Below are positions 40,948 through 41,146 of a stretch of DNA of 64,000 nucleotides, in pieces. Source of the stretch: Eledone cirrhosa (lineage: Eukaryota); assembly GCA_964016885.1 (NCBI GenBank), contig OZ024763.1:5022001-5086000 (forward strand), in the 5' to 3' direction. The notes beneath the pieces were generated by a model. The model saw only the letters and a program-made list of their open reading frames with translations, did no database searches and was not told the DNA's origin. The position numbers and the translations under genes are program-made. Positions within the stretch are counted from its first letter, which is position 1; each line of letters begins with the position of its first letter.

Positions 40948-40952
<5 letters not shown>

Positions 40953-41143
40953 ATAGAAGGAGCTTCTACAGGACTAGTACTGTTTCATTCAGATGAAATC
41001 TTCAGGCGCTTCCTGAAGATTTCATCTGAATGAAACAGTACTAGTCCTGTAGAAGCTCCTTCTATAAAATAAAAAAATTTTACTCTGCCATGTATTGAGT
41101 ACTTTACTTACTGTGGTTATCCCCGACTCAACCCGGGACCTAC

Positions 41144-41146
<3 letters not shown>
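40948..41146 (+). mobile_element. Fold-back element family B in (TA)n
   Basis: 59-bp perfect arms 40948-41006 and 41012-41070, spacer CGCTT, ~75-bp tail. Confidence 0.9.
41008..41056 (+). ncRNA. Complete type I hammerhead ribozyme fold
   Basis: GCUUC-CUGAAGA-U-UUC(aucu)GAA-U-GAA-ACAG(uacuaguc)CUGU-A-GAAGC; predicted cleavage after GUA at 41051. Confidence 0.8.

Follow-up and report, generated by a model that had tools for sequence, protein, structure and literature searches.

Junctions of a young Hydra-clade Penelope-like element in Eledone cirrhosa suggest paired cDNAs that end at a capped RNA start

The window, the whole stretch of DNA analysed here, comprises 64,000 nt of the Eledone cirrhosa genome (GCA_964016885.1, OZ024763.1:5,022,001-5,086,000, forward strand), an assembly of 3.0 Gb that is rich in microsatellites. 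It contains a 138-nt promoterless 5' fragment of a young Penelope-like element (PLE) of the Hydra clade, inserted in a (TA)n tract, with no coding gene evident nearby. The fragment carries a hammerhead motif and is preceded by an inverted copy of part of itself (Table 1). Its family is referred to below as family B, and element positions are numbered from +1, the A at which stem I starts in long copies. Fold-backs of a second family, family A, share the same geometry and are represented by 27,655 pattern matches genome-wide.

Table 1 Features of the element and of related fold-backs in the window (positions count from the first nucleotide of the window)
Feature	Position	Strand	Remarks
Upstream half of (TA)n target	40917..40948	.	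Last bases shared with the inverted arm; in the 59 inverted copies the arm follows (TA)n
Inverted arm	40947..41006	-	Perfect copy of about +6 to +65
Junction bases G, C	41006..41007	+	G overlaps the arm by 1 nt; C replaces the native +1 A
Forward arm	41007..41144	+	+1 to +138; 136/138 identical to long copy L071
Type I hammerhead motif, Hydra-clade form	41008-41056	+	Predicted cleavage after A41051
'Tail'	41072..41144	+	Forward arm only, between the putative RT starts (about +65 and +138)
Downstream half of (TA)n target	41145..41226	.	
Old-subfamily fold-back copy	10808..11253	+	Arm 10808-10864, forward part from about 10865
Family A fold-backs (four in window)	4163-4283, 6036-6139, 19684-19752, 55157-55281		

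The two 60-bp arms of the inverted repeat (40947-41006 and 41012-41071) match perfectly and are separated by the spacer CGCTT. C41007 is not native, the long copies having A at this position (100 of the 100 listed among 589). As the junction in the window reads G, C and then the native sequence from +2 onward, the spacer is likely a cap-derived junction; on that reading the G at 41006 was likely copied from the cap, and the inverted arm is likely a second cDNA primed at an A-rich internal site. Two other identities were considered for the hairpin and rejected: all of its matches to Rfam microRNA models fall under the gathering cut-off, which speaks against a microRNA precursor, and the asymmetric repeat, one-sided tail and variable centre are not those of a MITE. 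The old copy in the window was said in a preliminary description of this DNA to retain the pairing of stems I and III around a decayed core, and this was borne out. Its core (10872-10878) reads CCGAGGT and counts as decayed because the majority core of its older subfamily is CTGATGA, and its tail is broken near 10958 and resumes at about 11197-11253. The gap (10958-11197) holds about 240 bp of other repeats, flanked by an 11-nt direct repeat.

Every part of the hammerhead that had been named from the sequence was found at its place. GCUUC (41008-41012) pairs with GAAGC (41052-41056) in stem I, the core is formed by CUGAAGA (41013-41019) and GAAA (41032-41035), stem III pairs ACAG (41035-41038) with CUGU (41047-41050) around an 8-nt loop with the palindrome ACUAGU, and the triplet GUA ends at A41051. 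Stem II has 3 bp (41021-41023/41028-41030) and a 4-nt loop, with U41020 opposite U41031 as its closing pair. The motif thus shows the features of type I: a CUGANGA core, GAAA, an NUH triplet, three stems and an open stem I. A type I descriptor matched three times in the window, this motif included, compared with no match in each of 30 first-order resamples, a control that does not preserve microsatellites. The two other matches lie at 21793 and 56361, both on the minus strand.

The term 'complete canonical hammerhead' was nevertheless too strong. The conserved G10.1-C11.1 pair is missing and replaced by U-U, as in most of the listed genome matches; Rfam returned no hammerhead family among 59 matches for 40945-41150, nor among the 150 listed of 476 matches for the whole window; and the hammerhead is not the predicted minimum-energy fold of 41007-41062 (-6.5 versus -9.6 kcal/mol for the best fold). 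The short stem II with its U-U pair, noted earlier as a possible weakness, is present as described, but it is a trait of the Hydra clade and not a sign of decay: U-U closes stem II in 14 of the 26 hammerhead rows published in PMC8557442 (hand count), and ACAG/CUGU forms stem III in four rows. Older subfamilies retain the core, the stems and the U-U closure but differ in loop II and N7. A covariation analysis of 11 pairs over 19 aligned copies, whose subfamilies are very close, found 97% of cells paired and no two-sided changes, a result no better than that of shuffles.

The 3' 34-mer of the element has 1,473 exact matches in the genome, corresponding to about 1,500 young fragments, and a degenerate pattern of the core has 10,030 matches against none for the reversed control. 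Arms were surveyed in 92 of the first 100 listed 34-mer matches, all on contig C1, and removal of two tandem repeats of L075 left 90 copies. Insertion into (TA)n is evident in the survey, since an exact G(TA)n 12-mer follows 73 of the 90 copies and a variant of it follows most of the others. Long copies have a TATA box at -29 and the hammerhead at +1 to +51, and continue past +138 into an ORF leader. In the upstream direction they extend through a repeat-rich UTR to pieces of ORF, which lie on the same strand 2-3 kb upstream of the hammerhead in L152, L154, L155, L157, L158 and L159. Position +138 continues directly into the ORF leader in L158, and also in L084 and L110; the apparent 3' end is therefore also an internal point of the mRNA 5' region.

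No intact full-length ORF was recovered among these pieces, Pfam named neither RT nor GIY-YIG in them, and a PDB sequence search with them gave nothing under E 0.3. Individual motifs could be recognised. P0002 has RWR at 44 and DKT at 122, with no DKG, and P0001 carries YRDD, an LVY...YIG motif and CxCX5C, CxxC and CxH at 422, 522 and 550, with CCHH absent and one Cys only between the two halves of the GIY-YIG motif. The analysis found 34 homologues, at 34-55% identity. The Hydra clade is defined by RW(K/R), by DKT rather than DKG, by CxCX5C, CxxC and CxH and by the lack of CCHH (PMC8557442). Judged by these motifs and by its likeness, by eye, to the published alignment, the element is a Hydra-clade PLE, a new family of a known clade. 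The Neptune clade was rejected, as the CCHH motif and the CX2-5CxxC linker are absent or modified in P0001.

Published members of the Hydra clade (PMC8557442; e.g. Hydra-1_Obim and Penelope-n_HM) resemble the window family in their C-terminal GIY-YIG motifs, in their (TA)n target and in having a hammerhead near the 3' end. The window family differs in its long microsatellite-rich 3' UTR, 8-nt loop III and 3-bp stem II, and it is separate from Hydra-1_Obim, the hammerhead of which is different. Its motifs were not found in the supplement text available for PMC8557442, although a match interrupted by a line break could have been missed. Metazoan PLE hammerheads (PMC4209133) and non-LTR retrozymes (10.64898/2026.07.22.740005) share with it the type I motif, the extra base after A9 and a palindromic loop III suited to dimers; opposite-strand pairs have been reported among them, and they, too, are mostly dispersed single copies of truncated PLEs. 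The window element is distinguished from them by the lack of G10.1-C11.1, by a 4-bp stem III with a long loop and by its head-to-head single copies. Retrozymes are defined as tandem arrays (10.64898/2026.07.22.740005), and a non-LTR retrozyme was rejected as the identity of the element, the window copy and nearly all of the 90 sampled copies being single or head-to-head and not head-to-tail tandems. Tandems were seen in L031 and L075 only (two +2 to +138 units split by (TA)n, and three units of about 1,060 bp).

An inverted arm was present in 59 of the 90 copies, in every case starting between +55 and +72 and adjoining (TA)n, and 11 of the 53 inverted arms that were scored open with T runs that are repeated or too long, a pattern in keeping with a priming site. 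Genomic copies thus begin at two fixed sites, +138 for the forward arm and +55 to +72 for the inverted arm. Their distal ends are also concentrated. Forward arms (n = 90) end at -1 to +2 in 27 copies and at +3 to +10 in 21, in none between -2 and -17, and further upstream in 23; for inverted arms (n = 59) the corresponding figures are 30 at -1 to +2, 12 at +3 to +10, none at -2 to -14 and five further up. At this boundary, hereafter the wall, 27 of the 50 forward arms that reach +2 and 30 of 35 inverted arms come to a stop, compared with about 0.3 and 1.3 stops expected from the rate of stopping further upstream. The TATA box starts at -29 in all 10 distinct long rows of family B.

The bases at the wall carry a further signal. 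The native base at -1 is C in nine of 10 long rows (L157 has G), and among 68 distinct direct junctions with (TA)n at the wall 38 have G at -1, or 42 if four possible arm remnants are counted (hand count). The base that follows the 38 Gs is A in 27 cases, C in three, T in three and G in five, and is therefore not the native A in 11 of 38; in six of the 27 G-A junctions the two bases could also be the opening of an inverted arm. The extra G is supplied by neither the target nor the template. It is known that RT adds C opposite the cap, although a citation for this was not found in the literature searched. From the base composition of the junctions, the extra G, which is often followed by a wrong first base, is likely the trace of a capped start of transcription. 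A search of sequencing runs gave one recorded as RNA and 16 presumed to be RNA, all with a word share of 0.08, and four of unknown kind that contain the element; the four runs compared with it consist of assembled contigs, in which neither start, end nor strand shows. Two other accounts of the wall and its template were rejected. A splice acceptor (CAG at -1 to +2) does not agree with short copies that keep AG and have no constant upstream exon. Cleaved RNA as the main template is contradicted by 11 direct junctions at the cleavage site versus 68 at the wall, nine of the 11 being explained by native TA microhomology, and by only two of 90 forward arms starting at +44 to +48.

Family A separates the start site from the ribozyme. 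Its long copies (L237, L243 and L224) contain a hammerhead with the U3-A8 core variant, as described in PMC4209133, and a long loop II that includes a TATA-like box, which lies at -29 in three of the four reference copies and at -31 in the other. Short copies begin inside the ribozyme, without its first half, and the ends of 29 of 39 arms cluster to within 5 nt of one position, 29-31 nt below the TATA-like box; the other 10 arms extend further, with no end in between. The wall of family A lies inside loop II of the hammerhead, so it is the likely transcription start rather than the ribozyme that the breakpoint tracks. The position of the wall is tied to the promoter and coincides with stem I in family B alone. 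The earlier placement of the breakpoint at the 5' boundary of the ribozyme is hence correct family-wide as a position in family B, with 30 of 59 inverted arms ending at -1 to +2, but the need for an entire ribozyme does not set it. An extra G was seen in 10 of 58 direct junctions of family A (hand count), a weaker signal than in family B; the native TA of family A provides direct microhomology.

We consider it probable that the fragment and its hairpin were made by two cDNAs primed on opposite strands of the (TA)n target, both running to the capped end of the RNA. A different explanation for head-to-head junction palindromes in PLEs has been published, in which they arise by self-priming on an antisense template, and TATA and Inr motifs were noted in pLTRs in the same work (PMC3846280). 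Self-priming, in which a single cDNA (or an antisense template) would turn back and be extended along itself to form a palindrome, would account for the duplication of sequence in both arms of 53 of the 59 inverted copies, for the many junctions that are near-perfect palindromes and for three of 100 listed junctions that join +1 to +46 through the complementarity of stem I. A fold-back of a single cDNA, however, cannot exceed its template, whereas in 21 of 59 copies the inverted arm goes beyond the forward arm in the 5' direction by 4 nt or more (in 15 it is the forward arm that goes further, and in 23 the two ends agree within 3 nt), and six of 59 inverted arms share no overlap at all with the forward part; both observations favour two cDNAs. 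Self-priming also leaves the wall and the extra G unexplained, and the fixed, stuttering distal end resembles a start, so that we regard it as unlikely. A structural stop, namely a pause of the RT or a stall of a 5' exonuclease at the base of stem I, with the extra G as a one-base product of fold-back or terminal transferase activity, appears still less likely. It agrees with the exact coincidence of the family B wall and stem I, and with the complementarity between the end of the cDNA and the copy of the 3' strand of stem I, where the next templated base would be G. Yet the wall of family A, equally far from its TATA-like box, falls in loop II; fold-back predicts longer runs, and full extension occurred in none of 68 junctions although the pattern allowed it; and in 11 junctions the G precedes a mismatched +1.

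A further explanation, which takes up the preliminary description, is that the spacer of the fold-back purposely preserves an intact, working ribozyme cassette. The whole 5' strand of stem I is indeed kept in 31 of 59 fold-backs, and the exact core and stem III are found in 53 of the 64 copies that reach +7, but intact cores are to be expected without preservation in a young family. The other 28 fold-backs lack the 5' strand of stem I, in part or entirely, the window copy has no TATA box upstream, and the core of the old copy is decayed. The arm moreover removes the predicted fold: the probability of all three stems was predicted as about 2e-3 for the hammerhead alone, 3e-4 with the tail and about 1e-52 when the inverted arm is in the transcript. 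Preservation of a cassette is thus highly improbable, and the hammerhead of the window copy, though real as a motif, is likely inert there. For stem-loop III, pairing between two copies was predicted at -15.2 versus -1.4 as a monomer.

In the two-cDNA explanation the enzyme of the element would use each strand of the (TA)n target to prime a cDNA, and the two cDNAs would run off the capped 5' end of an uncleaved RNA before being joined. Position +1 would be the Pol II start, and an RT that continued into the cap would produce the extra G as well as the frequent errors at +1. A few bases, often the palindrome AGCT, would then let the 3' ends of the two cDNAs anneal to give the head-to-head hairpin. 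The 5' hammerhead would have to be mostly uncleaved on the templates, as might be the case for a weak monomer that needs a dimer or protein help. Partial parallels are found in other retroelements. In L1 twin priming the second target strand primes internally on the RNA, and LTR strong-stop DNA is a short cDNA made from an internal start to the cap; unlike in either, the start sites here are fixed and one stretch is usually present in both arms, and neither a tRNA primer nor poly(A) is involved.

The nearest biochemical counterpart is the Poseidon element PAc of the green anole (PMC11167929), which has a pLTR hammerhead and an AT-rich target. Both target strands are cut and extended in vitro, RT starts at two internal sites that bound a 'tail', uncleaved RNA is the main substrate for insertion in vitro, and cleavage by the hammerhead requires protein and is dispensable for insertion. 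PAc belongs to another clade, its tail is 30-40 nt compared with about 70 nt here, and in the window family, as against PAc, both RT start sites are flanked by sequence able to pair with (TA)n. Neither mapped cDNA stops nor an account of inverted ends was found in the available part of PMC11167929.

A wider reading, which we offer as no better than a tentative possibility taken with all of its parts, is that PLEs replicate in the manner of LTR elements without a tRNA: a strong-stop cDNA would run to the cap and then jump to a terminal repeat made by the hammerhead. RT would start inside the 5' end of the mRNA, and cleavage in the 3' pLTR would create a terminal repeat of 40-45 nt; the start lies 45 nt from the predicted cleavage site in family B and 41 nt from it in family A. 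Under the same tentative reading the thousands of short hairpins might be failed jumps, and the promoter of family A might lie in loop II so that only the 3' read-through copy cuts. If such a strand jump took place, the hammerheads of PLEs would gain their missing function.

Both hammerheads and inverted ends are already known in PLEs, and the hammerhead itself is expected in this class; the kind of element is known, and the new part is the mechanistic clue in the junctions, in which a very young and abundant family records its reaction intermediates. The origin of tandem and inverted PLE structures and the role of the hammerhead were named as open questions in PMC8557442, the available part of which holds no description of the cap wall. 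Likewise, no description of a cap wall or of twin cDNAs in PLEs was found in the literature searched, a scope that leaves most subscription papers outside. The junction counts point to a capped sense RNA copied twice rather than to the antisense self-priming presented in PMC3846280, and the two-cDNA model would explain how PLEs make inverted ends. The counts fix the positions of the start (+1), of the predicted cleavage (+45/+46) and of the RT starts (about +65 and +138), and they account as well for a large class of perfect hairpins in the genome that score against microRNA models.

Several minor observations were made alongside. An 11-nt motif in the tail is common to families A and B (window 41087-41097, 4129-4142 and 55299-55315), and a near match to it ends the published Hydra-2_Amil consensus; this motif may bind a protein near the RT start. 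At 2273-2378 a third fold-back family lies in (TA)n, with a hammerhead-like GAAA region and a one-sided tail, and longer perfect hairpins of other families, with arms of 81 and 85 bp, occur at 50909-51089 and 58561-58758, the last being the top Rfam match of the window, under the cut-off. Finally, L070 (G000:C1:106466283-106466301) is a chimera of the hammerhead-like 5' part of another element and family B, joined exactly at both predicted cleavage sites with 2 nt of microhomology. It is the sole such case in the genome and could be a product of ligation of cleaved RNAs.
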